64,000 nt of DNA, taken from Thermoanaerobaculia bacterium (GTDB lineage Bacteria > Acidobacteriota > Thermoanaerobaculia > Multivoradales > JAIOJS01). Below, in pieces: positions 11,121 through 32,586 of the stretch. Positions within the stretch are counted from its first letter, which is position 1. Every line of letters begins with the position of its first letter. The position numbers and the translations under genes are program-made. The stretch covers positions 3,864 to 67,863 of the forward strand of contig JAIOJS010000312.1 in assembly GCA_019911795.1 (NCBI GenBank), given 5' to 3'. Below the pieces are notes generated by a model, which had not been told where the DNA came from, searched no databases, and was given only the letters and a program-made list of their open reading frames with translations.

Positions 11121-11157
11121 TGAGGAGCGATCATATCGCGAGTTCGTGTAGTCCCGC

Positions 11158-16717: not shown

Positions 16718-16855
16718 CGAAGGGCGTCTCTGGTAAGGGATGGTCGTCGTTCTCGGAGTGGACCGAAGCCTATCTGAGGTCGTCGTTCATGTCCTGATTG
16801 GGGGTTGAAACATCCTACCTTTCTATGGTGGAATGGCTGGATGGTTTTACACTGC

Positions 16856-17548: not shown

Positions 17549-18768
17549 ACATTTGGCAATGGACTCAGGGTGACCTCGATAGCACTGTCGCAAAACGGCG
17601 GATCGAAGTGAGGCCCCTTCTGACGATGGTAGGCCTTGGAATGGCCAGTCTCTTGATCGCCTGTGGCGGTCCCGGTCAGGACGGAGGAGCTGCCCCGCCG
17701 CCGGTCCCTGCGGTCGGAGTCTTGAAGCCGGTACAGCAGCGAGTGACCGACTGGGAGGAGTTCAGCGGCCGGTTGTCGGCGGTCCAGTCGGTCGATGTGC
17801 GAGCGCGCGTCTCGGGATTCGTCGAGCGAGTTCACTTTACCGAGGGTTCGCTGGTCGAGGCGGGTGACCTCCTTTTTACTCTCGATCCGCGGACCTTCCG
17901 CGCCGAGCTGTCTCGCCTGGAAGCGCAGAAGCGAGAGGCGGATGTTCGGCTCGACCTTGCCCGCTCCGAGGCGGCCCGCGTCGAGCCGCTGATCGGTAGC
18001 CGGGCGGTGTCGGTAGAGGAGGTCGAGAAGCGGCGCCAGGACGTCGCCAGTGCCGAAGCTGCGGTAGGCGCGAGTCAGGCTGCCCTCGAGGGCGCACGCC
18101 TCAGCGTCGAGTTCTCGCGCATCGTCGCGCCGATCGCTGGTCGAGTGGGCCGGGCCCAGGTAACTCGGGGCAACCTGGTGAGCGGCGGCGCGGGGGACTC
18201 GACGGTCCTCACCACCCTGCGCTCGATCGATCCGATCTACTTCTACTTCACCCCGGACGAGCGCACCGCTCGTCGCATCCTCGATCCCAGCAAGCCCGGT
18301 ACCGAAGGGGTCGCCGTCGACCTCTTCGTCGGCGAGGGGGGCGAGAGCGCCCAACGCGGCGTCATCGATTTCTTCGACAATAGCGTCGATCCGTCCACCG
18401 GGACCCTGCGCCTACGGGCTGTTTTCCAGAACCCCGACGGTGCACTTCTGCCCGGTATGTTTGGTCGCCTGCGCGTCCGGATCGGCGAGCCTCACTCTGC
18501 TCTTCTGGTGCCGGATCGGGCGATAGGGCGCGACCAAACCCAGCAGTTGCTCTTCATCGTCGGCGATGACGGGATGGTCGAGCGTCGAGTGGTCACGACC
18601 GGAACTCTCGTCGATGGCTGGAGGGTGATCAACACGGGACTCGAAGCACACGAAGACGTTGTTGTCGATGGCATCCAGCGCGCGCGACCGGGCTCCAAGG
18701 TAGACCCGCAGCCGGCTGAACAAGCGACTCCAACCGGCTCGGACGCTCCCGGAGCTTCAGACTCGTGA
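17545..18768 (+). CDS. RND efflux membrane fusion protein (periplasmic adaptor subunit), probable lipoprotein
   Basis: ATG overlaps the GntR stop (ATGA). Lipobox LLIACGG. MFP barrel and lipoyl motifs are present (VDVRARVSGFVERVHFTEGSLVEAGDLLFTLDPRTFRAEL...VAPIAGRVG...GTLRLRAVFQNPDGALLPGMFGRLRV). The long upstream extension of the track ORF (from 17296) is rejected. Confidence 0.75.
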   Translation: MNIWQWTQGDLDSTVAKRRIEVRPLLTMVGLGMASLLIACGGPGQDGGAAPPPVPAVGVLKPVQQRVTDWEEFSGRLSAVQSVDVRARVSGFVERVHFTEGSLVEAGDLLFTLDPRTFRAELSRLEAQKREADVRLDLARSEAARVEPLIGSRAVSVEEVEKRRQDVASAEAAVGASQAALEGARLSVEFSRIVAPIAGRVGRAQVTRGNLVSGGAGDSTVLTTLRSIDPIYFYFTPDERTARRILDPSKPGTEGVAVDLFVGEGGESAQRGVIDFFDNSVDPSTGTLRLRAVFQNPDGALLPGMFGRLRVRIGEPHSALLVPDRAIGRDQTQQLLFIVGDDGMVERRVVTTGTLVDGWRVINTGLEAHEDVVVDGIQRARPGSKVDPQPAEQATPTGSDAPGASDS

Positions 18769-21700
18769 GGTTTGGTCACTTCTTCATCGATCGCCCGCGC
18801 TTCGCCGCGGTGATCTCGATCCTCATCGTCATGGTCGGAGGTTTGGCCTACTTTCAGCTTCCGATCACGCAGTACCCGGAGATCTCACCGCCGACGGTAC
18901 AGGTGAATCTAGTCTATCCAGGCGCCACCGCCGAGACGGTGTCCGAGACCGTCGCGGGTCCGATCGAGCAGGCTATCAACGGGGTCGAGGGGATGCTCTA
19001 TCTGAACTCCTCGGCGACGGCAGATGGTGCGCTGAGCATCTCCGTCGTGTTCGAGCTCGGGACCGATCTCGACACCGCCCAGATCCTGGTCCAGAACCGC
19101 ATCGCCGGGGTCGAGCCACGTCTCCCGGAAGAGGTCCGCCGCCTCGGTATCGCGGTGAGCAAGAGTTCCGCCGACTTCCTGATGGTGGTCCATCTGTTGT
19201 CGCCAGACGAAGTCTTCGACGAGCTCTACATCAGCAACTATGCGCTGCTGCGGGTGGCTGATTCCCTGCGTCGGATTCGCGGTGTAGGACAGCTGATCGT
19301 GTTCGGCGCCCGAGAGTACGGCATGCGGATCTGGCTCGATCCGGAACGTCTCGCGGCGCACGGGTTGACTGCGGGAGAGGTCGTTTCGGCCCTCCGCGCC
19401 CAGAACGTCCAGGTTTCTGCGGGTACCCTGGGCCAGCCACCGATGCCTCTCGGCAATGCCTTCCAGTTTACGGTGGGAGCACAGGGGCGGTTCGAAACGG
19501 TCGAGGAGTTCGAACAGGTGATCGTCAAGTCGGGTGAAGAAGGCCGGTTGACCCGAGTGGTGGACGTGGCCCGGGTAGAACTCGGGGCGCAGGACTACGT
19601 GCGCAACAGCTACCTCAATGGCCAGCAGGCCGCGGGAGTGGGTATCTTCCAGCGCCCCGGGAGCAATGCGCTCGCTACCGCCAAGGAGCTGCGCGAGACG
19701 ATCGCCGAACTCTCCAAGGATTTTCCCAAGGGGCTCGAGTACCGCATCGCCTACGACCCCACCGTTTTCGTGGAAGAGTCGGTGACTGCCCTCAATCACA
19801 CCATCTTTGAGGCCATTGCTCTCGTGGTGCTGGTCATAGTCCTCTTCCTGCAATCATGGAGGGCTGCAGTGATTCCCATCGTGGCCATTCCGGTCTCGCT
19901 GATCGGCACCTTTGCCGTCATGCAGGTCTTCGGCTTTTCACTCAACAGCCTGTCGCTCTTCGGTTTGGTCCTGGCCATTGGGATCGTCGTCGACGACGCC
20001 ATCGTGGTGGTGGAAGACATGGAGCGCAATCTGGAACGCGGGATGGAGTCGTGGCAGGCGGCCCGCCAGACCATGACCGAGGTCGGCTCGGCGCTGGTGT
20101 CGATGGCGTTGGTGTTGGTGGCCGTCTTCGTGCCGACGATCTTCCTCGGCGGTATCTCGGGACAGTTCTTCCGCCAGTTCGGCGTGACGGTGGCGGTGGC
20201 GACGGTGATCTCGGCCTTCAACTCTTTGACGCTCTCGCCCGCGCTCGGGGCGCTCTTGCTCCGCAGCCGCGAGAAGGCGGAGGACGGTTGGTTCGGACGG
20301 CTGTGGAACCGGGTTCTGGGTGGCCTATTCGGTGTTTTCAATCGTGGCTTCGAGCGCTTTAATCATGGTTACGGACGCACCATCCGTCGGATGCTGGGAC
20401 GCCCGGTGCTCGCGGTGTTCATCTTCCTCGTCCTCATCGCGGTGGGCGCCCTCCTCTTTACTGTCGCGCCGGCTGGGTTCATTCCCCACCAGGACCAAGG
20501 CTTTCTCATCGTAGCGGCCAGTCTGCCGCCCGCCTCCTCCTTGCAGCGCACAGACGCAGTCGTCCTCGAGGCGGATGCGCTCCTGCGTGCGCAGGAGGGG
20601 ATCAGCGACGTGGTGGGGATCGTCGGCTTCTCGGGAGCTACGTTCGCGACGGCATCCAACGCTGCGGCGATGTTCGTACTCCTGGATCCCATCGAGGAGC
20701 GGGGCAAGGAACTCTCCTCGACGAACCTCGCTCAGAGTCTGCAAGGCGTGCTCTCGCAGATTCGCGAAGCCCAGTTCTTCGTCATCGACCCGCCGCCGGT
20801 TCGCGGTCTCGGTGTCGGTGGTGGTTTCAAGATGATGGTGCAGGACCGGGCCGGCGGAGAGCTTCCCGCCCTCGAAGCCGCGACCTGGCAGCTGGCGGGA
20901 GCAGCCAACCAGGATCCGCGCATCAGTCAGGCCTTTACCACCTTCAACAATGCTCAGCCGCGGTATTGGGTCGACATCGACCGGGTTCGAGCTCAAGAGA
21001 TGGGGATACCCCTCAGCTCGATCTTCGACACGCTACAGATTCAACTGGGCGCTGCCTACGTCAACGATTTCAACCGATTCGGACGGACCTACCGGGTCAC
21101 CGCCCAGGCCGAGGCCCCTTTTCGACTCGACCCCGAAGACCTCAAGCGTCTCTACGTGCGGAATCGAGACGGTGAGATGGTGCCCTTGGGTTCCCTCGTG
21201 ACGATCCGTCAGGCGACTGGAACCGACCGCGTGGTGCGCTACAACCTTTACACTGCAGCCGAGCTGCAAGGGGCGGCGGCGCCCGGGTTTAGTTCCTCCG
21301 AGGCGATCGCGGCAATGGAGGAGTTGGCCGCGAAGCACCTACCTTCGGGCTACGGTTTCGAGTGGACCGAGATCGCGTTGCAGGAGAAGCTGGCCGGCAA
21401 CAGTGGCTTGTGGATCTTCCCCCTCTCCGTGCTCTTCGTCCTGCTCCTCCTGACCGCACAGTACGAGAGTTGGTCGCTGCCCATCGCGGTCATTCTCATC
21501 GTCCCACTCTGTGTCGTGTTTGCCCTCTTCGGCGTCTGGATCGCGGGCTATGAGAACAACATCCTGACCCAGATCGGTTTCGTGGTCCTCATTGGACTGG
21601 CTTGCAAGAACGCGATTCTGGTCGTGGAGTTCGCGCGTCAGAAGGAGGACCAGGGGATGGGGATCGTCGAGGCGGCGGCCGAAGCGGCTCGACTCCGACT

Positions 21701-21992
21701 ACGGCCGATCCTGATGACGGCGCTGGCCTTCATCCTAGGTGTGGTGCCGCTGGTCCTGGCCACGGGGTCGGGCTTCGAGATGCGACGCAACCTGGGCACA
21801 GCGGTATTCTCCGGGATGATTGGAGTGACTCTGAGTGGTCTCTTCCTCACCCCTGTCTTCTACGTCATCGTGCGCCGATTCGTCGGTGGCGACGGCGGCC
21901 GGGACCCCGGTAGCCGTGACCTCTCCGACCGTGAGACCGATCCAGCCATCGATCCCGAGCTGCTTCCTTCCTCCCCAGGGGTGCGGTCATGA
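18765..21992 (+). CDS. RND efflux permease, HAE1/AcrB family
   Basis: GTG overlaps the upstream stop (GTGA). The N-terminus MRFGHFFIDRPRFAAVISILIVMVGGLAYFQLPITQYPEISPPTVQV matches the canonical AcrB start. The protein is ~1075 aa with 12 TM helices and two large periplasmic loops. Confidence 0.9.
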   Translation: MRFGHFFIDRPRFAAVISILIVMVGGLAYFQLPITQYPEISPPTVQVNLVYPGATAETVSETVAGPIEQAINGVEGMLYLNSSATADGALSISVVFELGTDLDTAQILVQNRIAGVEPRLPEEVRRLGIAVSKSSADFLMVVHLLSPDEVFDELYISNYALLRVADSLRRIRGVGQLIVFGAREYGMRIWLDPERLAAHGLTAGEVVSALRAQNVQVSAGTLGQPPMPLGNAFQFTVGAQGRFETVEEFEQVIVKSGEEGRLTRVVDVARVELGAQDYVRNSYLNGQQAAGVGIFQRPGSNALATAKELRETIAELSKDFPKGLEYRIAYDPTVFVEESVTALNHTIFEAIALVVLVIVLFLQSWRAAVIPIVAIPVSLIGTFAVMQVFGFSLNSLSLFGLVLAIGIVVDDAIVVVEDMERNLERGMESWQAARQTMTEVGSALVSMALVLVAVFVPTIFLGGISGQFFRQFGVTVAVATVISAFNSLTLSPALGALLLRSREKAEDGWFGRLWNRVLGGLFGVFNRGFERFNHGYGRTIRRMLGRPVLAVFIFLVLIAVGALLFTVAPAGFIPHQDQGFLIVAASLPPASSLQRTDAVVLEADALLRAQEGISDVVGIVGFSGATFATASNAAAMFVLLDPIEERGKELSSTNLAQSLQGVLSQIREAQFFVIDPPPVRGLGVGGGFKMMVQDRAGGELPALEAATWQLAGAANQDPRISQAFTTFNNAQPRYWVDIDRVRAQEMGIPLSSIFDTLQIQLGAAYVNDFNRFGRTYRVTAQAEAPFRLDPEDLKRLYVRNRDGEMVPLGSLVTIRQATGTDRVVRYNLYTAAELQGAAAPGFSSSEAIAAMEELAAKHLPSGYGFEWTEIALQEKLAGNSGLWIFPLSVLFVLLLLTAQYESWSLPIAVILIVPLCVVFALFGVWIAGYENNILTQIGFVVLIGLACKNAILVVEFARQKEDQGMGIVEAAAEAARLRLRPILMTALAFILGVVPLVLATGSGFEMRRNLGTAVFSGMIGVTLSGLFLTPVFYVIVRRFVGGDGGRDPGSRDLSDRETDPAIDPELLPSSPGVRS

Positions 21993-23437
21993 GTCGCTTC
22001 GATCTTCGATCCTACGCACAGTTCGCCGCCTGGCCGGCGCCACGAACTCTCCTGGTACCGGTCTTGATGCTGGTCGGCGGCACGGGCTGTGTGGTGGGCC
22101 CCGACTACGAGACCCCAGCGACGACGCAGCCGGTCGTTTATTCGGAGGCCCAGAATCGGGCTGGCTTCGATGCGGCTACGGAGCCCGAAATCGAGTGGTG
22201 GAAGGGTCTCGAGGACCCGGTTCTTGTCGACCTCGTCGAACGAGCCCGACAGAACAACTTCGATCTCGCCGCCAGTGAGGCGCGCCTGCAAGCCGCCCGA
22301 GCCCTCCTCGGACTTCAGAAGTGGCAGCGCTGGCCGGGAGGCTCGGTGTCGGGATCAGTCGAGGAGCGGGACCTTGGCGAGTTCGCCGCCGTCGGCGGTT
22401 CGGATGGCTCGGATACGTACTACTCGGCCGGACTCGATGCCAGCTGGGAGGTCGACCTCTTCGGTCGGATTCGCCGATCGATCGAGGCTCAGGGGGCTAC
22501 CTATGAGGCGGCCGTCAATGACCGTCGCGCCGTCTTCGTTGCGGTGTCGAGCGAGGTGGGAAGGACCTATCTCGAGTTCCGCGGCCTGCAGAGTGCTCTC
22601 GAGGTTGCCCGCCTCACGATCTCCAACGAGGAGGAGAGTCTGGAGATCGTCGAGGCCCTGCAACGAGCCGGACGGGTCACTGACCTGGATGTCGAGCAGT
22701 CGCGCGAGCGGCTCGAGACCACCCGGGCCTTCGTTCCCGACCTGGAGTCGGCGGCGGGACGCGCTCGGCGACGACTTGCGGTGTTGGTGGGAGAGGAGCC
22801 GAGTGCTCTCGATTCTATCCTTACGCCTACCCGAGCCTTGCCTCCGATCCCTGACCGTATCGCTATCGGTGATCCGGCGAGCTTGTTGCGGCGTCGTCCT
22901 GACGTCGTGGCGGCGGAGCGCAGACTCGCCGCCGCGACCGCTCGTATCGGGGTGGCGACGGCGGATCTCTTCCCACGGCTCTCCCTGAACGCCTCCTTCA
23001 GTGCGTTGGCAACCTCACTCGACGACCTCACCAACAGTGGAGCCCAGACAACGCGATTCGGTCCCTTTCTCAGTTGGCCCCTTTTCGATCTCGGACGCGT
23101 TCGCCGCGCCATCGCGGTGACCGAGGCTGATGCCGACGCTCTCGTCGCGGACTATCAGTCCACCGTGCTGCGTAGCCTGGAGGAGACCGAGAACGCCCTG
23201 GAGCGACTCGACAACCATCGACGCCGTCAGGCGCATCGACGGCGAGCCCTAGAGGCCGCGAAGCGCGCTCTCGATCTGGCCAAGCAACGCTACGAGGCGG
23301 GCCTCACCGACTACTTGACCGTGCTCGTGACGGAGGATCGACACCTGGTCGCCGAGGACGCAGTAGTCCGGGGCGCGACCGAGATCGGTACTGCCTACGT
23401 CGCGCTGTACGAAGCCCTGGGAGGGGCCTGGCAGTAG
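21989..23437 (+). CDS. RND efflux outer-membrane factor lipoprotein, NodT family
   Basis: ATG overlaps the upstream stop. Lipobox LVGGTGC is followed by the NodT signature VVGPDY. Two TolC-like repeat halves and the WPLFDLGR motif are present. Confidence 0.8.
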   Translation: MSRFDLRSYAQFAAWPAPRTLLVPVLMLVGGTGCVVGPDYETPATTQPVVYSEAQNRAGFDAATEPEIEWWKGLEDPVLVDLVERARQNNFDLAASEARLQAARALLGLQKWQRWPGGSVSGSVEERDLGEFAAVGGSDGSDTYYSAGLDASWEVDLFGRIRRSIEAQGATYEAAVNDRRAVFVAVSSEVGRTYLEFRGLQSALEVARLTISNEEESLEIVEALQRAGRVTDLDVEQSRERLETTRAFVPDLESAAGRARRRLAVLVGEEPSALDSILTPTRALPPIPDRIAIGDPASLLRRRPDVVAAERRLAAATARIGVATADLFPRLSLNASFSALATSLDDLTNSGAQTTRFGPFLSWPLFDLGRVRRAIAVTEADADALVADYQSTVLRSLEETENALERLDNHRRRQAHRRRALEAAKRALDLAKQRYEAGLTDYLTVLVTEDRHLVAEDAVVRGATEIGTAYVALYEALGGAWQ

Positions 23438-23582: not shown

Positions 23583-24404
23583 ATGGAAGCGAGTAGTCCC
23601 CTCAAGAAAACGACCCCGGCAATCGATGCTGCCCAGAGTCCGCCATCTGGTGTGGTTTTCCTCGCTGCCGGCCGAGGGACTCGCTTGTCGGAGCTCACTG
23701 AAACGACCCATAAGGCTCTCCTTCCAATAGGCGGACAGCCGGTTCTTCAGTATGCCGTCGATCGTGTCCTTGATGCTGGCGTGGAAGATGTCGTCGTTGT
23801 CACTGGGAGCAAAGCGGCGACGCTGGAGGAGTTTCTGCGAGCTAGGTACTCGGACCGAGTCACGCTCGTCTACAACGATCGATTTGCGACCGACACCAAT
23901 ATTCTTTCCACGGAGATCGGTGTCGGTGCCCTGAGACGGCCTGAAGAAGGCTATATGATCATCGAAGCGGACCTGGTGATCGAGCGCGAGGGCTGGTCGC
24001 GAGTTTTGGAGGTTGGTTCTGGGAGTGACTCCTTCTGGGTGACACAGAGCGTCTACGGAGTGAACCGAACCGGGGGAGCCGTGCGAACTGACGTTGCTGG
24101 GAATGTCCGCGACATCGTCTACTCGAACTCCTACAACCCTGCCTACGACGGATGGCGGAAGCTGATGGGTGTTCTCTTCGTGGGACCTAATCAAGTTGCG
24201 AACGATCGACGGCTTAGGCGGGAAGCGATCAGGCGCTCCATTGGACAGTACTACATGATGCCTTGGGTCGAGAACCTTGGCAGTCTTCCCTGCATGGCAA
24301 GGGACCTAGGTGACCTTTTCGCACGTACCTTCAACGATGCCGTCACCTACCAGCAGACAGCGGACGAGGTCAGCGAGTTTGAGAGGCTTGGAATCGCATG
24401 GTAG
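23583..24404 (+). CDS. Sugar/alcohol-phosphate nucleotidyltransferase (LicC-like cytidylyltransferase family)
   Basis: VVFLAAGRGTRLSELTETTHKALLPIGGQPVLQYAVDRVLDAGVEDVVVVTG is the N-terminal NTP_transferase motif (G-x-G-T-R). Confidence 0.6.
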   Translation: MEASSPLKKTTPAIDAAQSPPSGVVFLAAGRGTRLSELTETTHKALLPIGGQPVLQYAVDRVLDAGVEDVVVVTGSKAATLEEFLRARYSDRVTLVYNDRFATDTNILSTEIGVGALRRPEEGYMIIEADLVIEREGWSRVLEVGSGSDSFWVTQSVYGVNRTGGAVRTDVAGNVRDIVYSNSYNPAYDGWRKLMGVLFVGPNQVANDRRLRREAIRRSIGQYYMMPWVENLGSLPCMARDLGDLFARTFNDAVTYQQTADEVSEFERLGIAW

Positions 24405-24790
24405 TCGAGTTGGTCGATCCAGCGTCGCTGAGACACATCGAAGGCTATAGCGTCCGACGCGTGGAGTGGCTTCGGGCCAAGATCCTCGAGGAAGAACTCT
24501 GGACGAAGCCGGTCGCCTTGGACACCGACCACAATTTGGTCTTGGATGGTCAGCATCGGATGGAGGTAGCACTCTCGCTCGGCTTGAGTCGCCTCCCCGC
24601 CGTCAGATTCAACTACGCGAGCGTTGAAGTCTGGAGTCTCAGGCCGAAAAAGTACTCCTTTGGCTGGGACGACGTCGTCAGGCGGGTGTTAGGGGGAGAG
24701 ATCTATCCCTACAAGACGGTCAAGCATCGTTTCCCAGTGGAACTGCCTGCTTGTAGCTTCAGTCTCGAGGAGCTCCGTCGTGAAAGTTGA
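24398..24790 (+). CDS. ParB/sulfiredoxin-fold (ParB-like nuclease domain) small protein; candidate small-molecule kinase or CTP-binding protein
   Basis: The core is ALDTDHNLVLDGQHRMEVALSLGLSRLPAVRF (ParB N-domain 'DGxHR' box). It is 130 aa and has no HTH or dimerisation domain. It overlaps the upstream gene by 7 nt. Confidence 0.45.
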   Translation: MVVELVDPASLRHIEGYSVRRVEWLRAKILEEELWTKPVALDTDHNLVLDGQHRMEVALSLGLSRLPAVRFNYASVEVWSLRPKKYSFGWDDVVRRVLGGEIYPYKTVKHRFPVELPACSFSLEELRRES

Positions 24791-25445
24791 TCAGGCGATC
24801 ATCTTGGCCGCAGGTCGGGGGCACCAGGTGGACGGAATGGCCAAGGTCCTGATTCGACACCCCCGGACTGGACAGACCATTCTTGACCATGCTCGGGCAG
24901 CCTTCGGAGCCAAGAAGATCATCGTGGTGGTCGGGTATCGGGCTATCGAGGTCATGGAATCGGCGCCGGATCTCGAGTTTGTCGTCAACCGTGATTGGGC
25001 GCTGACGAACAATGCCATGAGCTTGGGGCTCGCACTGACGGATGAGCCGACCTATGTGGTGTCCGGTGACATCTTCTTTGGGAAGGACTTGATCGAGCAC
25101 CTCGACCACGGGCAGGATGATTTGGTCCTTACAGACGCCCGCGAGAACAGAACCTTGACCGCGGTCCATTGCGTTTTGCGAGGAGACGGAACCATTTCCG
25201 AGTCGTATCAGGGGCCAGTGCGGGATCCGAAGCATCCCGAGGCAGTGGGGCTCTTCAAGATCTCGGACCCGGACCTTCTTCGGCGTTGGAAACGCCTATG
25301 CATCGCCCATGGGAATCTCTTCGTAGGTCAGACCCTCCCGTGTGACGGTGCCCCGGTTCACTCGGCGTCGAAAGGTGGATACGAGTTCAATGAGATCAAC
25401 ACCCCGACGGACTACTTGCGACTGATGGAGCAGAGTAGAGAGTGA
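24780..25445 (+). CDS. Nucleotidyltransferase (MobA/LicC-like), second copy
   Basis: AIILAAGRGHQV...KVLIRHPRTGQTILDHA...KIIVVVGY matches the NTP_transferase N-terminal motif. It is paralogous to 23583..24404 and overlaps upstream by 11 nt. Confidence 0.55.
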   Translation: MKVDQAIILAAGRGHQVDGMAKVLIRHPRTGQTILDHARAAFGAKKIIVVVGYRAIEVMESAPDLEFVVNRDWALTNNAMSLGLALTDEPTYVVSGDIFFGKDLIEHLDHGQDDLVLTDARENRTLTAVHCVLRGDGTISESYQGPVRDPKHPEAVGLFKISDPDLLRRWKRLCIAHGNLFVGQTLPCDGAPVHSASKGGYEFNEINTPTDYLRLMEQSRE

Positions 25446-26674
25446 TTCGCTCGTTGACGATCGGCCTGCCTCTCGACGTCCTGTCGACGACCGAGATCGA
25501 AAGAACAGTCAAGGAGCTGCTGGGGGTAGCACGTAGGGAGTTCGACCAAAACTCCGTTTCGCCCCGTACGGTTCGCTTTACGCTTCCACCGAGCGGCAAG
25601 GACGGAGAGACCGACGGCGCTTTACTGTCTCGGCTCCGCTGGGTCGATGAGCTGGCCGCGAGCGAAGGGATTCGCTGGTTCTGCTGCCCAGTCGACCTTG
25701 TATCGGCCGGTTCTCCGAAGGTCCGATTGCCGGCTATTCTCGACGGGATTCTCCGCTTCGACCGAATGTTCGCGAATCTCATCCTTGCCCAGGATGGCCG
25801 GATTGCGGTCAATGCACTCTACGAGGCTGCGAAACTCGTTTTGAATCTCTCGCGGAAGAGCAACAATGGCTTCGATAATTTCCGACTGGGAGCCTCTTTC
25901 AACTGTCCCGCGAATGCACCGTTTTTTCCCTTCTCCAGGCATGAAGGGGGCAGGGTTTCGTTCAGTTTTGCACTCGAGACCACCCAGCTGGCTCACCAGA
26001 TCCTGGATGCGATGGGCGAACCTCCCGAACCGGCCTTAGCTAGAGATCGACTGGTGGAGGGGTTGGTACCCTCTTTGGCGCTTGTCGACGAACTTGGCCA
26101 AAGGACTGCGGAGGCTTCGTGCACAGAGTACAAAGGCCTCGATGCTTCACTGGCTCCGATGCCGGTCGATGATGTCTCGGTGGCGGGCCTCGTGGAGCGC
26201 TTGACCGGAGTTCCCGTAGGCAGCCATTCGACCCTGTTCGCGACCGCACTCCTTACTGATTCTCTGCGCACCGCGCTCGCCCAGAGTGGTGTTGCATCCG
26301 TCGGATTCAACGGTGTCATGTATTCCCTGCTCGAGGACCCTGTTCTGGCCGCCGCCAACAACAAGCGCCTCATTACGGTCGACACTCTCCACGCACTATC
26401 GTCCGTCTGTGCTTGCGGCTTAGACATGATCCCCGTGCCTGGGCTTTCCTTCCCGGAAGAGATCAGCGCTCTGATGCTGGACACCGCCGCCCTGTCGAGT
26501 GCCTTGCGAAAGCCACTCGGGGTTAGGTTGTTGCCTATTCCCCAGGGCCACGTGAACGAGTACACGAAATTCAATCTCGACTTCCTCTGCGATAGTCGGA
26601 TCGTGGGTTTGACGTCCAATGACCGACGCATCGCGACTGCGGAGGATCTTTTGGAGTTCCATACACCTCGCTGA
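25442..26674 (+). CDS. Conserved hypothetical protein, possibly UPF0210/DUF711-like
   Basis: The N-terminus MIRSLTIGLPLDVL resembles the 'IRTITMGI' start of UPF0210 proteins, and the ~410 aa length fits. There are no other recognisable catalytic motifs. The gene is translationally coupled (ATGA/GTGA overlaps) on both sides. Confidence 0.3.
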   Translation: MIRSLTIGLPLDVLSTTEIERTVKELLGVARREFDQNSVSPRTVRFTLPPSGKDGETDGALLSRLRWVDELAASEGIRWFCCPVDLVSAGSPKVRLPAILDGILRFDRMFANLILAQDGRIAVNALYEAAKLVLNLSRKSNNGFDNFRLGASFNCPANAPFFPFSRHEGGRVSFSFALETTQLAHQILDAMGEPPEPALARDRLVEGLVPSLALVDELGQRTAEASCTEYKGLDASLAPMPVDDVSVAGLVERLTGVPVGSHSTLFATALLTDSLRTALAQSGVASVGFNGVMYSLLEDPVLAAANNKRLITVDTLHALSSVCACGLDMIPVPGLSFPEEISALMLDTAALSSALRKPLGVRLLPIPQGHVNEYTKFNLDFLCDSRIVGLTSNDRRIATAEDLLEFHTPR

Positions 26675-26698
26675 AGCGGTTATCCGACTGGAGGGTCC

Positions 26699-27406
26699 AT
26701 GATCGACAAAGAGAAGGTCAAGGCGTTTTGGGACGCTAGGGCTAGAAAATACGGGGCCGTCCCCTACGACAGCATCGCAAATCTGGAGCAGGATGCCGAT
26801 AGCCTTGCTCTCAAGGTGGAACTGGAGACAGAGAAGGTCTTCGAGTTTCTGGGCTCGGTGGAGTCGAAGACAGTACTAGACCTAGGAGCGGGTGTCGGAC
26901 AGTGGTCCTTTCGATTCGTCGACCGTGGTGCCAAGGAAGTCTTGGCGGTGGAGTACTCCGCGGAACTTGCTGCGATCGGCCAATCAGAGGTCGAGGCAAG
27001 AGGAGTCTCGAACGTTCGCTTCGTAGTCAGCCCGGCCGAGCGCTTCTCGACGGACAGGACCTTCGACGTTGTCTTCATCTCGGGGCTCTTCGTCTATCTA
27101 ACGGACGACCAAGCCGACGAAGTCCTGAGCCGCTTGCCCGGGGTCTGTCATCCGGACACCATCGTGCTCCTTCGCGATGGCACCGGACTGGAGACTCGAC
27201 ACGAGATTGACGACCGTCTTTCGGGTCACCTGCAGACTCGTTACTCAGCAACCTATCGAACCGCTGCGGTGTACGAGAGACTGTTCGCGGACCATGGCTT
27301 TCGCCTCCTTCGGAGCGAGAACATGTTTGCCGAAGGATGCGTACTCAACAAGTATCCTGAAACTCGTCTCCGGATCTATGAGTTTTCTCTGGGTGGCAGC
27401 GATTGA
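26699..27406 (+). CDS. Class I SAM-dependent methyltransferase
   Basis: Motif I is VLDLGAGVGQWSFRFVDRGAKEVLAVEYS. It is followed by DVVFISGLFVYL and the ~235 aa length is typical of small-molecule methyltransferases. Confidence 0.6.
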   Translation: MIDKEKVKAFWDARARKYGAVPYDSIANLEQDADSLALKVELETEKVFEFLGSVESKTVLDLGAGVGQWSFRFVDRGAKEVLAVEYSAELAAIGQSEVEARGVSNVRFVVSPAERFSTDRTFDVVFISGLFVYLTDDQADEVLSRLPGVCHPDTIVLLRDGTGLETRHEIDDRLSGHLQTRYSATYRTAAVYERLFADHGFRLLRSENMFAEGCVLNKYPETRLRIYEFSLGGSD

Positions 27407-28173
27407 GTCCTAAGATTCTACCGGTCCACTCAGGGGTTGAGTGGCCGCTCAGCGAAGGTACTCTCGGGGTGGTGGGGGTGGCCCCTTGGGCAACCATCGA
27501 GTTCTGTCGCGTGCTGTATGGCGGCGTTCGAGCCTCGAAGGACTGGTGCTACCCCAGGGTCTTGATCGATATCAACACCAAAATCCCAAGCCGTGGGCGT
27601 CACCTGCAGCTCGGTGAGACGGATCCGTCGGCTGCGATCGCTGCCACCATCGAGGAGCTCGCCAGTCAGGGCGCCACGCTCGCTGTGGTCGTCTGCAATA
27701 CCGCCCATATTCTGTTTGATGGCTGGGGTAGGTCAGCGTCGATTCCGGTCCTCAATATCATCGACGAAACAGTTTCTGCCGCCCGAAGCCACGGAGCGCG
27801 GAAGGTCACCCCACTGGTATCGACGTCCCTGGCCAAGGCTGACCTGTACGGAAGTGCGGTGGAGTCTGTTGGACTGGAATGTACCCGCCTCGGTTCGGAG
27901 GACCAGGAGTTGGTTGGCGAGGTTATCGAGCAGATCAAGATTGAGGGCCAGATGGACAGCATCGTGACGGACCGGGTACGGGCCTTGTTGGAAGCGCTAC
28001 GTCTCCGGGGCGTTGACACGGTCCTTGGGGGATGTACTGAACTCTCCTCGCTCGGAGTCCATTGCCAGGATCTCGGGTTGGAGTTTGTCGACTCGAATGC
28101 CGCCTTGGCGAGATCGGCGCTGGCAGGGATCGGAGTCTCCACCGAGGGGACTTGTCTCGATCCTTCCTCCTAG
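27403..28173 (+). CDS. Asp/Glu/hydantoin racemase-family amino-acid racemase
   Basis: LGVVGVAPWATIEF (GGMGP-type N-motif), VVCNTAHILF (first catalytic Cys motif 'CNTAH') and VLGGCTELSSLG (second catalytic Cys motif 'GCTE'). Confidence 0.7.
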   Translation: MSPKILPVHSGVEWPLSEGTLGVVGVAPWATIEFCRVLYGGVRASKDWCYPRVLIDINTKIPSRGRHLQLGETDPSAAIAATIEELASQGATLAVVVCNTAHILFDGWGRSASIPVLNIIDETVSAARSHGARKVTPLVSTSLAKADLYGSAVESVGLECTRLGSEDQELVGEVIEQIKIEGQMDSIVTDRVRALLEALRLRGVDTVLGGCTELSSLGVHCQDLGLEFVDSNAALARSALAGIGVSTEGTCLDPSS

Positions 28174-30080
28174 GTGCCGTCTCGAATGCTGGATTGGCCC
28201 GGCGACTCCCAAGGCTCGTTCTCCACTTCTCTCCAGTTCTTCCGATCGTAGGGATCGCGATCAGTAAGGACCAGTTGTTTCCCGATCACGAAGGCGTTTC
28301 GCTTCTGCTGACTAAACTGCCAGGGGACGATAGAAACAACGAAGGGCTGGTCTCTTCCAAGGGTCTGCACTGGTTTGTCGTCCAAGTAGGGATTGACGCA
28401 ACCGCCAATCTCCTCGCAGACGATCCTTGGCACTTCAGCGTTGGTGAGGAATGCCTCAGAGGTTCTCAAGGGGCCTGAAGTACGAAGCTCTTTGACGAGG
28501 AGAACAGATCTCGAGCGCACAAAGACACTCGCCGTTGAACCTCCTCGAAGCGCGCGACTAGAGTGGTCTTCAACCGGACCGATGATGCCATGGTCGGAGA
28601 CGATCACGATCTTCGTGTTGTCGTAAACGCCAGCCTGCTTCATCCAGCGAAAGTAGTCGGAGACCAGGAGAAGACTACATCGCGCAGCGTTGGCGTGCTG
28701 CATCGCAAACATGCTCGCGTACCCCTCCTTCCGGAAAACCTCGGCGGGAACCTCGAACTGTACCGGCATTGGGTTGCAGTCCTTACTCAAGTAGTAGGGT
28801 TCGTGCGGCAAGATGTTCCACAGGAGGTTGAAGCTACTAGTCGTCGCTTCGCTGGATGTCAGAGTTGGAAGGGACTTGAGTTCGGCCCACTGACGGAAAG
28901 TCGTACCGGCGGAGTGATCGAGAAACGGTCTCCAAGGGCCGCGCTCGCTGAGCACCTCCTTGATTGCATAGGGCGAACTGCGCATCAGGCCGAGAAGAAC
29001 CAGAAGGTCCGCATAATTGGATCGCGAGAGCGCTTCGGTGGGAACCCCGAACTCCTCGGCTCGATCCATCGCCGTCGCCACCGGTATGTGAGAGCAAGTC
29101 ACGTCGTCCATCTCGAGGAAGGAACAGTCTCCCTTCATGGTGAACCCTAGGCCCCGAGGGTTCACCACATTGACGGTATAGCCGCTTCGAGAGAAGTTGT
29201 AGGGCAACAGGCGGTAAGCCTCTACCGAGATGTCTCGGAGGACTCCATTGCGGGAGTTCATTTCGGGCGGAGTGTAGTCGTAGCCGCCAAGAATTGGGTG
29301 CACACCCGAGATTGAGTTGTCGCCGGCGGCAACCGTCAGTGGATACCATTGGAAGCCATCCAATTCAGTCGCGAGTTGGGGTTCCTTCTCCAGGATCTCC
29401 TCTACAAAGCCCCCCATGAAGCGATCGAGGATCAAGATCAGGACATTGTTCTCGTGGCGTGAGAACTGTAGGGGCGCCTCGGTCCCAGCTTCGACACTTG
29501 TAGGCTCGGTTCCGGAGAGCGTGTCCCTTCTCACCTCCAGGATGCCGACGCTAGTGAGGATCACATTGACAAGAAGTATTGCCGTGACCAATCCCCGACC
29601 GCCGAGGTAGTTGATTGAGAGCGTGGTGGCGACAATGATCAAGACGAGAAGGATGGCATCCAGGGTGGTGCGAGCCGCCAGCTCCAGCGCCGTGATCGGA
29701 ATCTGCTCAAACATCAGCCCGTTCATTGCAGGGTAGCCGAGGGGGAGGATGAAGGAATAGAAAAGCGCGGTGAAGAGACCGGTGACTGCTGCCAGGGTCA
29801 GCAGGGTTCGCATGCGAGGAGAGATTGCGAGCGAATAGAGCACCCCGGCAAGATAGACCGCGACCATTGATTCGCCAACGTTGTTGTGAAGGAGGTAGTC
29901 GAGGTGCAAGTCGATCTCGCCGGGAGACGTAAGGAAGGTCATGATCGGTAGGTACACGTAGACAAGCAGGGCGACCGTACCCACTGATAGCAGGTAGGTG
30001 CTCAGCCGCCAGCGACCCAGGTCCTGAGCTACCGACACCATCGCGCCGTCCGAAAAACCAAGGGAGGCTATGCCGGTCAC
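28170..30080 (-). CDS. Membrane-anchored sulfatase-fold phosphotransferase (LTA-synthase / phosphoglycerol- or phosphoethanolamine-transferase-like)
   Basis: The N-terminus has ~5 TM helices. The C-terminal alkaline-phosphatase/sulfatase-fold domain has LILILDRFMGG (metal-binding Asp region) and KIVIVSDHG (conserved SDHG). It converges with the racemase gene with a 4-nt overlap. Confidence 0.6.
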   Translation of the reverse strand: MTGIASLGFSDGAMVSVAQDLGRWRLSTYLLSVGTVALLVYVYLPIMTFLTSPGEIDLHLDYLLHNNVGESMVAVYLAGVLYSLAISPRMRTLLTLAAVTGLFTALFYSFILPLGYPAMNGLMFEQIPITALELAARTTLDAILLVLIIVATTLSINYLGGRGLVTAILLVNVILTSVGILEVRRDTLSGTEPTSVEAGTEAPLQFSRHENNVLILILDRFMGGFVEEILEKEPQLATELDGFQWYPLTVAAGDNSISGVHPILGGYDYTPPEMNSRNGVLRDISVEAYRLLPYNFSRSGYTVNVVNPRGLGFTMKGDCSFLEMDDVTCSHIPVATAMDRAEEFGVPTEALSRSNYADLLVLLGLMRSSPYAIKEVLSERGPWRPFLDHSAGTTFRQWAELKSLPTLTSSEATTSSFNLLWNILPHEPYYLSKDCNPMPVQFEVPAEVFRKEGYASMFAMQHANAARCSLLLVSDYFRWMKQAGVYDNTKIVIVSDHGIIGPVEDHSSRALRGGSTASVFVRSRSVLLVKELRTSGPLRTSEAFLTNAEVPRIVCEEIGGCVNPYLDDKPVQTLGRDQPFVVSIVPWQFSQQKRNAFVIGKQLVLTDRDPYDRKNWREVENEPWESPGQSSIRDGT

Positions 30081-30296
30081 GACGACAAGGTAGAGAAGAC
30101 TTCCGACACTGCAGTTGATCCACAGGACGAAGCAGGCATCGGCAAAGACGATGAGTCCAAAGAGCGCACGTCGGCGGTAGGGCTGCCCGGCGACCAGGGA
30201 AGAGCGAGCACCGCGCCGGAGCGCCGCAATCAGTAGGACGGCATTGAAGACAAGGATGATGAGAGTGGGGATGTTTGACGGCTCCGCGTGGTTTAC

Positions 30297-31022
30297 TTAG
30301 CGTTGGTTGGCGACTTCTTGAATCCGAGCTCTCCATCGCGGTGGAATTCGAGGAGTGAGCTTTGACTCTGTGAGGTTTCGGACAAGAGAGAAGAGGTTGT
30401 TGCTTGTCCAGTAGAGAAGCAGGCCCGAAGGGCTGTTGTAGAGGAGGACGAGAAAAACAGCCGCGAGAATAAACGCTTGACGGCGCTTGGATCGGTCGGC
30501 ATCGTAGGCGAGGGCGGATGCCATATTGAAGACCGTCATCAGGAAAGGCAGGAAATTTGCGCCGAAAAGCAATTCGTCTGGTCTCGAGAGATCGGGGATC
30601 CCCAGATACGAGCTTCCCACAAGGGCTGGCATCTTCGATATGTAGTGGTAGACGGTTGCGAAGACGAGGATCTGCAGGTAGAGGTCTCCGGAGGAGAGGA
30701 CAGCAGAGATGGGCTTATAGCCGAAGGTGCGATGAACCGCACGAGTGTAGAAGTAGCGCTCACGTCCGCTGTAGGTTGCTTTGATGCGAGCAACTTCATC
30801 GTCGACGATCCTGCGCAGGGCGAGGCTCTTTCTACCGTTGATCTCCATCTGAAAATAGAGGGGGAGAAGTAGGAGATTCAACACGCAGCTGAATGCGATC
30901 AGCGCTGAGCCCGGCTCAGGAATGAGGACCAGGATGTGACGGAAGATCCAGTCGTAGATCACCGAAAGGGGCAGTAGGAAGATCGTTTCGAGGAGACTAG
31001 TCATGGTCAGCGAGGATCTCAC
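30297..31022 (-). CDS. Short YidC/Oxa1-family membrane protein insertase paralog
   Basis: It aligns by eye to the E. coli YidC C-terminal core: [22 protein letters not shown] vs [20 protein letters not shown], and the terminal signature [21 protein letters not shown] vs [20 protein letters not shown]. It has 5 TM helices and ~240 aa, like Gram-positive YidC1/2. Confidence 0.65.
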   Translation of the reverse strand: [241 protein letters not shown]

Positions 31023-32256: not shown

Positions 32257-32586
32257 TGTCCACTCAACGATCTCGCGCTGGCCTGCAGGTACATGCCTCC
32301 AATCCCTTCGCCATGTCGAAGGGCGGGCCGTAAGGCGTCCGAACTGAAGCGACTCGGTTGTGGGGTGGTTCCGGCTGTTGTCTCGGTCCGAAGACCTTTC
32401 CAGCGTTGCTCTCATTGGCTCCCGGGAATGCGGCGGTGAATGCATGTCTTTGAAGAGTCTGTCCCCGCGACGGCCACCGCAGGTGGGATTTTCTTGAGTG
32501 GATAGTCGATGATTCGAGGCTTCGGTATTCTAGCTGGTGGCAATGACCGACCCAGCCACCGAGAGGGCACGCCTCGAGTCTCGTTG

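Follow-up and report, generated by a model that had tools for sequence, protein, structure and literature searches.

The locus analyzed here raises the question of what a 130-aa protein with a ParB/sulfiredoxin (Srx) fold does between two nucleotidyltransferases. Its gene lies in a 64,000-nucleotide stretch of DNA from a Thermoanaerobaculia bacterium (contig JAIOJS010000312.1 of assembly GCA_019911795.1), referred to in full as the window. The initial annotation had hypothesized that this protein is a small-molecule kinase that phosphorylates an alcohol for activation by the adjacent cytidylyltransferase. Our computational analysis supports this hypothesis through a match to SerK and SbnI, which are kinases of free serine, through conserved residues, and through fusions to nucleotidyltransferases, with the kinase activity itself being predicted. 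We call the protein mini-SerK.

The mini-SerK gene overlaps two nucleotidyltransferase genes

Mini-SerK is encoded by an ATG-started ORF at 24398..24790 on the plus strand, which has both profile and structure matches to a SerK/SbnI-type kinase core, and LVLDGQHRMEVALSLGLSRLPAV represents residues 47-69 of its 130 aa. As described previously, the ORF overlaps both neighbors: by 7 nt (ATGGTAG) at its 5' end with the upstream gene NT1 (23583..24404) and by 11 nt at its 3' end with the downstream gene NT2 (24780..25445), which has a GTG start. A word-indexed search retrieved 341 homologues at E<=1e-3, one of which was an exact match in a Thermoanaerobaculia MAG, and an exhaustive profile search retrieved 1168. 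When 34 diverse members were aligned, 35 columns were invariant. The ORF is a genuine gene rather than a chance reading frame. Public annotations of the relatives mostly read "hypothetical," "ParB N-terminal domain protein," or "transcriptional regulator." Searching the 130-aa protein against Pfam gave no family at E<=0.01, ParB_N included. Both an HTH and a dimerization domain are absent from mini-SerK, and the SerK-like core accounts for all 130 aa.

Mini-SerK resembles SerK and SbnI over its whole length

Searched against the PDB, the mini-SerK family profile matched SerK at 6e-8 and SbnI at 2e-5, while all ParB entries scored at >=0.03. We then compared an AlphaFold2 model of mini-SerK (pLDDT 95.9) with solved structures using Foldseek. 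Over its full length, the model matched SerK (5x0b, the ADP-dependent enzyme TK0378 of Thermococcus kodakarensis, and 1vk1 from P. furiosus) and SbnI (5uje, 6nr6, and 5ujd) with query-normalized TM-scores (TMq) of 0.83-0.87, those for SbnI being 0.85-0.87, and each of the nine best matches was SerK or SbnI. On the other hand, ParB, Noc, and sulfiredoxin covered ~78 residues at TM 0.41-0.49, with sulfiredoxin reaching ~85 residues at a TMq of ~0.41. The structural comparison with SbnI, SerK, and ParB that the initial annotation had suggested gives a whole-length superposition on SerK and SbnI and a partial one on ParB, an outcome that favors the kinase reading.

The resemblance to SerK spans all 130 residues of mini-SerK at an identity of only ~15%, and the two proteins differ considerably in size. 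SerK has 242 aa and SbnI ~254 aa with an extra domain, and this two-domain architecture of ~240-255 aa is not that of mini-SerK. The part that mini-SerK lacks is the SerK middle domain (residues ~118-205, ~90 residues): the HMMER alignment jumps from SerK residue 117 to 206, mini-SerK residues 91-126 align with SerK 206-241, and the Foldseek alignment of the 130-aa protein spans 216-226 columns. Since the TMq of 0.83-0.87 applies to the whole length, the C-terminal segment must be part of the superposition. The earlier description of a bare ParB N-domain core was thus correct in that HTH and dimerization domains are missing, but the C-terminal 40 residues correspond to the SerK C-terminal segment. 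The NCBIfam SerK model NF053625 matched mini-SerK with an E value of 2.3e-5 and 23.7 bits against a cut-off of 380, which is far below the equivalog threshold. Together, these profile and model comparisons support placing mini-SerK, as a minimal form with a predicted kinase activity, among the ParB/Srx-fold small-molecule kinases of the SerK/SbnI lineage.

The CTP-dependent DNA clamps ParB, Noc, and KorB share with mini-SerK, as does sulfiredoxin, the ~78-residue ParB/Srx nucleotide-binding core. Unlike the clamps, mini-SerK has no HTH, C-terminal dimerization domain, GERRxRA-type box, or parA neighbor, and unlike sulfiredoxin, it has no catalytic Cys.

Predicted catalytic residues are conserved

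Mini-SerK and SerK have in common the catalytic Glu, the DGxHR loop, a W-K-P segment, and a C-terminal Y..K-T-x-K/R-H..P segment. The predicted catalytic base of mini-SerK, E15 (codon at 24440..24442, plus strand), aligns with SerK E30, for which E30A and E30Q mutants are represented by PDB entries 5x0e and 5x0j, and our alignments showed E15 to be invariant both in the clade linked to the cassette described below and in an SbnA-linked sister clade. The D50-G-Q-H-R54 loop (24545..24559, plus strand), a ParB/Srx-fold phosphate-binding motif, aligns with SerK D69-G-H-H-R73. Its residues D50, G51, H53, and R54 are invariant in both clades. The C-terminal segment Y103-P-Y-K-T-V-K-H110 (24704..24727, plus strand), which aligns with SerK Y218-S-P-K-T-T-R-H225, is invariant across the 34 diverse members; when both clades are taken together, P104, K106, and H110 are invariant, and T107 is nearly so. 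The roles assigned to residues beyond E30 are based on PDB entry titles and on the alignment.

A sister clade lies beside SbnA and SbnB

The sister clade consists of 143-147-aa proteins that carry the same invariant residues as mini-SerK and adjoin SbnA/SbnB homologues, often together with IucA/IucC siderophore genes. We found it in Agrobacterium vitis, Aureimonas, Bradyrhizobium, Ralstonia solanacearum, and Janthinobacterium. SbnA and SbnB consume O-phospho-L-serine, which is supplied to SbnA in staphyloferrin B synthesis by SbnI, an ATP-dependent free serine kinase with a reported regulatory, DNA/heme-linked role. The sister-clade proteins hold the same position next to SbnA/SbnB as SbnI does in Staphylococcus. 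This position suggests that, in the staphyloferrin-B-type clusters of Ralstonia and rhizobia, the missing equivalent of SbnI is encoded by the short ParB-like gene. Since the sister clade adjoins SbnA/SbnB, phosphoserine gains independent, though indirect, support as the predicted product of mini-SerK. Mini-SerK itself differs from SbnI in lacking the extension and in belonging to a cluster without SbnA or SbnB.

Many mini-SerK relatives are fused to LicC-like nucleotidyltransferases

NT1 (23583..24404, plus strand, 273 aa) is a LicC-like, probably cytidylyl, transferase with Pfam matches to NTP_transf_3 and NTP_transferase. Its top PDB match is LicC, a CTP:phosphocholine cytidylyltransferase (1jyk, 7.6e-12), and PntC-type entries 6plj and 6pd1 also match. 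We presume that NT1 consumes the product of mini-SerK. NT2 (24780..25445, plus strand, 221 aa) is a divergent LicC paralogue that matches Pfam NTP_transf_3 and, by profile, LicC at 6e-6. In the NT2 family alignment, the signature GxG[ST]R is changed to G-x-[GS]-x-Q with loss of the triphosphate-binding Arg. NT2 may be noncanonical or bind product.

Among the best 150 cluster representatives, 44 were fusions of a nucleotidyltransferase to mini-SerK, and one was a nucleotidyltransferase-mini-SerK-nucleotidyltransferase triple fusion; triple fusions occur in P0138 and L054. Pfam confirmed the fusions in loci L062 and L054. None of the mini-SerK relatives examined was fused to a nuclease or an HTH/DNA-binding domain. 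The initial annotation had regarded such fusions as evidence for a DNA-related role; the fusion partner seen in the orthologues examined is instead a LicC-like cytidylyltransferase.

A conserved cassette surrounds mini-SerK

The cassette comprises a LicC-like nucleotidyltransferase, mini-SerK, a second nucleotidyltransferase, a DUF711 protein, an N-methyltransferase-like protein, and a racemase, and we found it in 64 genomes (65 loci) of bacteria and archaea from many phyla. NT1 is present in 63/65 loci, DUF711 in 59/65, and the racemase in 36/65. A CDP-alcohol transferase lies within 8 kb of the cassette in 47/65 loci, in the form of LicD (9), CDP-OH_P_transf (9), or a TagF-like enzyme (29, a lower bound, so that at least 29/65 loci carry one). 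Literature searches covering the DUF711/UPF0210 family, CDP-serine, and short homologues of SbnI turned up no published description of the cassette, and the Pantoea cassette had no match in E. coli complete genomes.

In the window, NT2 is followed on the plus strand by the DUF711/UPF0210 gene (25442..26674), which is tightly linked to mini-SerK and encodes a barrel like that of ribonucleotide reductase (RNR) and glycyl-radical enzymes (GREs), without the radical domain. We rejected DUF711 as a cryptic GRE because the C-terminal "RIVG" of the window protein is not conserved, the protein has half the size of a GRE, no activase gene was seen in the neighborhoods examined, and its carriers include aerobes. 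The best 120 of its 377 homologues contained no fusions. Next is a class I SAM methyltransferase (26699..27406, plus strand; Pfam Methyltransf_25 and related families), whose top PDB matches are the plant phosphoethanolamine N-methyltransferases 5wp4 and 5wp5 (4e-11), followed by ToxA, NTMT1, and CypM. The two-cysteine amino-acid racemase of the Asp/Glu family (27403..28173, plus strand; Pfam Asp_Glu_race) scores above the NCBIfam asp_race cut-off, contains CNTAH and GCTE motifs, and matches the aspartate racemase 1jfl at 3e-19. Against the model for the cysteate racemase CuyB, it reaches 140 bits, below the cut-off of 190.

Three further genes lie on the minus strand. One encodes a polytopic membrane protein of 636 aa with a sulfatase/LtaS-like C-terminal domain (28170..30080). 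Pfam gave no family above threshold for the window copy, and orthologues in loci L001 and L062 match PF00884 Sulfatase; the protein is kept beside the cassette in L001, L003, L029, and L062 and is a candidate periplasmic phospho-head-group transferase. A small YidC/Oxa1-like protein of 241 aa (30297..31022; Pfam 60KD_IMP, 2.3e-16) is conserved in L001, L003, and L029. The third gene encodes a TagF-like CDP-alcohol phosphotransferase (30997..32445; Pfam Glyphos_transf, 25.6 bits against a cut-off of 22.1), a candidate for the enzyme that transfers the phospho-head group.

Pfam and NCBIfam searches found no other kinase family in these nine genes, in agreement with the earlier statement that the cluster lacks another recognizable kinase. 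Neither a kinase of the choline-kinase/APH fold (LicA) nor a ThrH-like phosphotransferase (CD0241) is present among the nine, and the ParB-fold mini-SerK takes that position. We saw no parA in the cluster, where scans for promoters and terminators also gave nothing above chance, and the window has no tRNA or Rfam matches. We also rejected phosphonate chemistry as the general logic of the cassette, since tblastn found a PEP mutase in only 2/68 loci and none in the window. The two carriers are the Lachnospiraceae locus L062 and an A. vitis plasmid.

Comparison with known head-group pathways

The cassette has in common with the Lic (LicA, LicC, and LicD) and Kennedy pathways the order of a kinase, a LicC-like cytidylyltransferase, and a CDP-alcohol phosphotransferase, and it also carries a PMT-like N-methyltransferase. 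However, the Lic pathway kinase has the choline-kinase/APH fold, whereas the candidate kinase of the cassette has the ParB/Srx fold. The Lic pathway also lacks a racemase, a second degenerate LicC paralogue, and DUF711, all three of which the cassette has.

The clusters cd0240-cd0244 of C. difficile and pa1088-pa1091 of P. aeruginosa resemble the window cluster in having a LicC-like nucleotidyltransferase, a TagF-like enzyme, and a SAM methyltransferase. In C. difficile, a phosphotransferase, a LicC-like nucleotidyltransferase, an N-methyltransferase, and a TagF-like enzyme make the Type A glycan of flagellin, GlcNAc-P-N-methyl-Thr, whose phospho-amino-acid head group (N-methyl-threonine phosphate) is proposed to be CDP-activated by the LicC-like enzyme, transferred by the TagF-like enzyme, and N-methylated by the SAM-dependent enzyme (PMC10714395). 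This glycan is a precedent for a head group of the CDP-amino-acid-phosphate kind. On the other hand, phosphorylation in Type A clusters is assigned to a ThrH/phosphoserine-phosphatase-like phosphotransferase in place of a ParB-fold candidate kinase, these clusters lack DUF711, the racemase, and the second nucleotidyltransferase, and their target is flagellin-linked GlcNAc. The cassette setting likewise separates mini-SerK, found in both bacteria and archaea within a head-group cassette, from SerK, which belongs to cysteine/serine metabolism.

Proposed pathway and alternatives

We consider it fairly probable that mini-SerK phosphorylates free serine or a very close analogue and that NT1 then builds a CDP head group for a surface glycan or lipid. 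In the scheme that we infer from the computed fold, catalytic constellation, fusions, and gene neighborhood, with regard to the kinase activity, its serine acceptor, the order of steps, and the final head group, E15 would act as general base, assisted in phosphoryl transfer by the D50-G-Q-H-R loop together with K106, T107, K109, and H110. The phosphoryl group would move from a nucleotide (ATP, ADP, or CTP) to the hydroxyl on the side chain of free serine or of the analogue. The phosphorylated product would pass to NT1, which is translationally coupled to mini-SerK in the window and fused to it in many lineages, and NT1 would convert it into a CDP-linked, CDP-serine-type head group. The two-Cys racemase may racemize this head group, the methyltransferase may N-methylate it, and DUF711 and NT2 may process it further. 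The final transfer of the phospho-head group, onto a surface glycan or lipid, would fall to a CDP-alcohol phosphotransferase (TagF-like here and LicD or a CDP-alcohol phosphatidyltransferase elsewhere).

Several observations bear on the details of this scheme. SerK is specific for free L-serine and rejects threonine and homoserine (PMC5120207), and if the missing ~118-205 domain is used for substrate or nucleotide binding, the activity or specificity of mini-SerK may differ from that of SerK. Since the cassette has no phosphoserine-consuming PLP enzyme, the choice of serine comes from homology and the sister clade. An archaeal SerK-like protein has been reported to bind CTP and not ATP (PMC12704722), which makes nucleotide use in the ParB/Srx fold unpredictable. 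DUF711 (59/65 loci) and the Arg-less NT2 have no place in a simple kinase/cytidylyltransferase/transferase scheme, and a product of DUF711 could accordingly be the true acceptor. More tentatively, we can envisage a previously undescribed serine route to a CDP-activated head group, in which mini-SerK makes phosphoserine and DUF711 performs new chemistry on phosphoserine or CDP-serine, maybe with NT2 as a CDP-ligand binder. One example would be a decarboxylation with unusual cofactor use that reaches the ethanolamine level, after which N-methylation would lead toward choline; another would be formation of a new phosphodiester cap carrying a D-amino acid.

A kinase of the same fold that acts on another acceptor, such as ethanolamine, N-methylethanolamine, choline, threonine, homoserine, glycerate, or a DUF711 product, is in our judgment unlikely. 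In that case, the cassette would amount to a Lic-type pathway without LicA, with a ParB-fold kinase in place of choline kinase, consistent with the LicC-like character of both NT1 and NT2, the phosphoethanolamine N-methyltransferases that are the nearest solved relatives of the methyltransferase, and the LicD phosphocholine-transferase-family genes that flank the cassette in 9 loci. The almost always present DUF711 could make the acceptor, and loss of the SerK middle domain could have shifted specificity. However, the residues shared with SerK, including K-T-x-K/R-H, are also invariant in the SbnA-linked clade, where the product is necessarily O-phosphoserine, and the racemase implies an alpha-carbon stereocenter that ethanolamine and choline do not have. 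Threonine and homoserine are also the very substrates that SerK itself refuses (PMC5120207).

Mini-SerK sits between two nucleotidyltransferases and is fused between both in the triple fusions, which would also suit a noncatalytic nucleotide-binding (e.g., CTP-sensing) subunit or scaffold that holds or regulates NT1 and NT2. Binding of CTP to this fold is known from ParB and from one SerK-like protein (PMC12704722), ParB-fold proteins can serve as switches or scaffolds, and mini-SerK is small and without the second domain of SerK. We nevertheless find this role improbable: a pure scaffold would need neither the SerK catalytic Glu nor D50, H53, R54, K106, and H110, all strictly conserved; the same short architecture occurs in SbnA/SbnB clusters that have no nucleotidyltransferase and need a phosphoserine source; and the cassette offers no other kinase family by Pfam or NCBIfam. 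Far less probable still is that mini-SerK has a ParB-like function related to DNA, as a nuclease, partition protein, or transcription factor, or a function like that of sulfiredoxin, its position in a glycan cluster being accidental. The ParB and regulator labels of the relatives point that way, as does a nuclease activity once ascribed to the P. furiosus SerK homologue, according to an earlier report as cited in PMC5120207. Against it stand the missing HTH, dimerization domain, and Pfam ParB_N match, the restriction of ParB, Noc, and Srx to 78 residues at TM 0.41-0.49, the lack of a visible parA in the cluster, and the replacement of the catalytic Cys of sulfiredoxin (GCHR) by Gln in mini-SerK (GQHR). 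Synteny with metabolic genes is moreover kept in 64 genomes from many phyla, and the fusions among the relatives examined are to nucleotidyltransferases only.

Implications for envelope head groups

Mini-SerK and its relatives are widespread and about half the size of the free-serine kinases that they resemble, which suggests that a SerK-type kinase core may need no more than ~130 residues. From the fusion link to LicC-type cytidylyltransferases, we predict that envelope glycans and lipids in many phyla carry a phospho-amino-acid or amino-alcohol head group, and the carriers include cultured strains of Pantoea, Pseudomonas, Xanthomonas, Agrobacterium, and Castellaniella. DUF711/UPF0210, which has long been uncharacterized even with a structure solved in 2006, gains a concrete biochemical context. 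If the serine route with DUF711 chemistry is true, it would provide the first function for DUF711/UPF0210 and would reveal a Kennedy-like head-group pathway common to Proteobacteria, Acidobacteriota, Firmicutes, CPR bacteria, and DPANN archaea.

A conserved gene encoding a predicted compact relative of serine kinases

The mini-SerK gene (24398..24790, +; ATG start, 130 codons) lies between genes for two LicC-like nucleotidyltransferases, NT1 (273 aa; 23583..24404, +) and NT2 (221 aa; 24780..25445, +), and overlaps both, as the initial annotation had noted: the NT1 stop overlaps the mini-SerK start by 7 nt and the mini-SerK stop overlaps the GTG start of NT2 by 11 nt, the usual signature of translational coupling. 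The ParB-type motif quoted in that annotation was also found, at residues 47-69. A word-indexed search returned 341 homologues, nearly all of 123-150 aa, among them an identical protein in a Thermoanaerobaculia MAG. When 1.84 billion cluster representatives were searched exhaustively with the profile, 1168 homologues were returned at E<=1e-3, and an alignment of 34 family members contains 35 invariant columns. The ORF is a real gene, and a conserved one.

A Pfam search with the 130-aa protein gave no match, and NCBIfam gave a weak match (E 2.3e-5; 23.7 bits, cut-off 380) to SerK, the ADP-dependent free L-serine kinase of Thermococcus kodakarensis. Compared with PDB sequences, mini-SerK alone matched SerK over two separate segments (residues 43-83 against SerK 62-104, and residues 91-126 against SerK 206-241), and the family profile matched SerK at 6e-8 and SbnI, the serine kinase of the staphyloferrin B pathway, at 2e-5, with ParB-type chains reaching only 0.03-0.3. 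The family-profile alignment pairs the invariant E15 with SerK E30, the residue changed in the deposited mutant structures E30A and E30Q, and likewise K37-P38 with K52-P53, D50-G-Q-H-R54 with D69-G-H-H-R73, and Y103-P-Y-K-T-V-K-H110 with Y218-S-P-K-T-T-R-H225. An AlphaFold2 model built from the family alignment was very confident (pLDDT 95.9, pTM 0.88), and its top nine Foldseek matches in the PDB were all SerK, its Pyrococcus furiosus orthologue 1vk1 or SbnI, superposing over the full query with TM-scores of 0.83-0.87, whereas ParB, Noc, KorB and sulfiredoxin aligned over only ~78-87 residues (TM 0.41-0.49). The ParB N-domain core described initially is present, but mini-SerK is therefore not merely a ParB N-domain, since it matches SerK and SbnI along its full length in both profile and structure. 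Together, profile and model predict that mini-SerK is the SerK/SbnI catalytic core without the middle domain of about 90 residues (~118-205) that SerK possesses.

Genomic context in the window

The best solved relative of NT1 is a CTP:phosphocholine cytidylyltransferase (1jyk, 7.6e-12), and NT1 also matches PntC-type phosphonate cytidylyltransferases. NT2 belongs to NTP_transf_3 and is LicC-like by profile (6e-6); all 18 aligned orthologues carry a G-x-[GS]-x-Q signature instead of G-x-G-[ST]-R, with the Arg gone and the loop 4 residues shorter. The conserved Lys and Asp and the C-terminal E-I-N-T-P-x-D-Y motif are retained. Because the signature Arg is missing, NT2 may be non-canonical, or may bind CDP-ligands and perhaps not use CTP. 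The next gene encodes a DUF711/UPF0210 protein (25442..26674, +), an RNR/glycyl-radical-enzyme-like barrel of about 410 aa without the radical motif, which keeps, among other invariant residues, a C-x-C-G-x-D-M loop and several arginines and lysines. Downstream in the operon (+) come a SAM methyltransferase, for which plant phosphoethanolamine N-methyltransferases are the top solved relatives, ahead of other N-methyltransferases, and a two-cysteine Asp/Glu-family racemase, by NCBIfam closest to cysteate and aspartate racemases.

Convergent with this cassette, on the reverse strand, are genes for a 636-aa sulfatase/LtaS-type membrane protein, a small YidC-like protein (30297..31022, -; 241 aa) and a TagF-like CDP-alcohol phosphotransferase. 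The YidC/Oxa1-like paralogue is kept between the TagF-like and sulfatase/LtaS-like genes in the window and in three homologous loci (L001, L003 and L029), an unusual site for an insertase homologue. The nine-gene cluster (23583..32445) has a G+C content of 57-58%, below the 63% of both flanks, which suggests an island acquired horizontally; the patchy spread of the family across phyla agrees with this. Its flanks appear unrelated to the cassette: one side has an RND efflux operon, and the other holds genes for an amine oxidase and a class V aminotransferase. The RND operon immediately upstream (17296..23437) is complete, with adaptor, 1075-aa pump and outer-membrane factor, and is preceded by a GntR/FCD regulator gene (16805..17548).

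Distribution of the cassette and its transferase partners

In a scan of one genome per species, mini-SerK was present in 64 genomes, spanning Acidobacteriota, Alpha-, Beta- and Gammaproteobacteria, Myxococcota, Desulfobacterota, Chloroflexota, Planctomycetota, Verrucomicrobiota, Bacteroidota, Actinomycetota, Bacillota, Patescibacteria, and DPANN and Methanosarcinales archaea, and including cultured strains of Pantoea, Cedecea, Pseudomonas, Xanthomonas, Agrobacterium, Roseovarius and Castellaniella. NT1 directly neighbours mini-SerK or is fused to it in 63 of 65 loci, and DUF711 accompanies it in 59, the exceptions being mostly contig ends; NT2 (56/65), the methyltransferase (48/65) and the racemase (36/65) follow. 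Firmicutes, Bacteroidales and CPR show the minimal conserved unit, an NT1-mini-SerK fusion with DUF711. A second mini-SerK of Xanthomonas sp. XNM01 (L029), whose genome also has a full cassette (L011), directly follows a TagF-like/YidC-like/sulfatase-like module, with NT1 and DUF711 absent nearby.

At least 47 of the 65 loci have a CDP-alcohol-dependent transferase within 8 kb of the cassette (29 with a TagF-like enzyme, 9 with LicD and 9 with a CDP-alcohol phosphatidyltransferase), examples of which were confirmed by Pfam. That three unrelated CDP-alcohol transferase families converge on a single cassette is a strong argument for a CDP-activated phospho-head group as its product. In Woesearchaeota, Nanoarchaeota and an unclassified archaeon MAG (L054, L056 and L058), an NT1-mini-SerK-NT2 triple fusion is followed by a single ORF combining the methyltransferase match with a CDP-alcohol phosphatidyltransferase (Pfam-confirmed for L054), and the latter enzyme is also paired with the cassette in Myxococcota and Chloroflexota (L041-L045, L048). 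The racemase is absent from all these loci, which suggests a variant of the pathway for lipid head groups. One of them, from Anaerolineales (L045), has a FemAB-family aminoacyl-tRNA-dependent transferase gene (10320..11324) directly after DUF711.

In several Proteobacteria (L002, L073 and L074) the cassette lies directly 3' of Wzm and a Wzt bearing the Wzt_C carbohydrate-binding domain; L073 and L074 additionally have Wza and Wzc. By analogy with E. coli O9a, which carries a methyl-phosphate cap, the head group might here act as a cap that ends the chain and that the exporter recognises. Phosphonate chemistry is an occasional associate of mini-SerK: a Lachnospiraceae locus (L062) has a Fom1-like fusion of a cytidylyltransferase-like domain and PEP mutase beside the cassette (1427..2722, -), and an A. 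vitis plasmid (L067) has PEP mutase together with a LicC-like enzyme, a CDP-alcohol phosphatidyltransferase, SbnA/SbnB homologues and mini-SerK.

Fusion partners, a sister clade and alternative roles

Among the best 150 of the 1168 cluster representatives, mini-SerK stands alone in 86, forms the C-terminal domain of ~355-390-aa proteins with an NT1-type N-terminus in 44, and in one 622-aa protein sits between two nucleotidyltransferases; Pfam confirmed fusion architectures in P0122, P0138, L062 and L054. Apart from these, one distant protein joins mini-SerK to an NAD_binding_1 reductase module, the sole other partner domain recognised. The initial annotation had held that nuclease or DNA-binding partners would point to a DNA-related role; the outcome was the opposite, with no HTH or nuclease fusion among these 150, and a DNA-related or sulfiredoxin-like role is effectively excluded. 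That mini-SerK is a non-catalytic CTP-binding scaffold for such partners is unlikely, as its catalytic Glu is conserved and the same type of protein occurs without nucleotidyltransferases.

A tblastn search of plasmids found 229 records with a full-length relative (35-40% identical, 143-147 aa), mainly from Ralstonia, Sinorhizobium, Rhizobium and Agrobacterium. In every annotated example inspected, the relative adjoins genes of the SbnA type (cysteine synthase family) and the SbnB type (ornithine cyclodeaminase), as in A. vitis pAvCG412 (L067), Aureimonas (L069), Bradyrhizobium (L070), the Ralstonia solanacearum megaplasmid (L071) and Janthinobacterium (L072). The Bradyrhizobium operon also has an IucA/IucC siderophore synthetase gene and lies beside a TonB-dependent receptor gene, the Ralstonia locus has TonB-dependent receptor genes between mini-SerK and sbnA/sbnB, and the Janthinobacterium cluster is of the NRPS/PKS type. 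Residues E15, W35, D50, G51, H53, R54, P104, K106 and H110 are common to SbnA-linked and cassette-linked proteins, and T107 is nearly invariant. SbnA uses O-phospho-L-serine, which SbnI supplies in Staphylococcus (PMC12704722); the short form thus turns up in settings that require a supply of phosphoserine, and the SbnA/SbnB-linked proteins, annotated as 'ParB N-terminal domain-containing protein' or 'transcriptional regulator', are probably unrecognised SbnI equivalents supplying O-phosphoserine. On a Chimaeribacter arupi plasmid (L068), mini-SerK shares its operon with genes for a PLP-dependent enzyme, a NUDIX protein and a hydroxylase and with additional PyrD- and PyrE-like genes; this may be a natural-product cluster using phosphoserine. 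SerK itself acts specifically on free L-serine, with threonine and homoserine not accepted (PMC5120207). That mini-SerK is instead a kinase for another acceptor is a less likely alternative, though a likelier one than the scaffold role.

Proposed pathway

In some JGI records, family members already bear the automatic label 'L-serine kinase (ADP)', and a 2025 survey of ParB folds grouped SerK with divergent orphan ParB-like proteins; our literature searches found no description of the short SerK architecture, the LicC-like fusion or the DUF711 cassette. The closest described system is the cluster for the C. difficile flagellin Type A glycan, GlcNAc-phospho-N-methyl-threonine, which needs a phosphotransferase, a LicC-like enzyme proposed to produce CDP-L-threonine, an N-methyltransferase and a TagF-like enzyme (PMC10714395). 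CDP-L-serine is formed in vitro by a Campylobacter cytidylyltransferase (cited in PMC10714395).

From the computed fold and catalytic constellation, the NT1 fusion and the association with CDP-alcohol transferases, we propose that mini-SerK would phosphorylate serine or a close analogue, with ATP, ADP or CTP as donor, that NT1 would turn the product into a CDP-linked head group, and that the racemase and N-methyltransferase would tailor it. One idea is that DUF711 takes phosphoserine or CDP-serine to the ethanolamine level, toward N-methylated or choline-type head groups. Such a step would match the minimal unit read as kinase, decarboxylase and cytidylyltransferase, and would also suit LicD and the PMT-like methyltransferase; the frequency of the racemase speaks against this loss of the stereocentre, yet the lipid-type loci lack that enzyme. 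Finally, a TagF-like, LicD or CDP-OH_P_transf enzyme would join the head group to a glycan or lipid.
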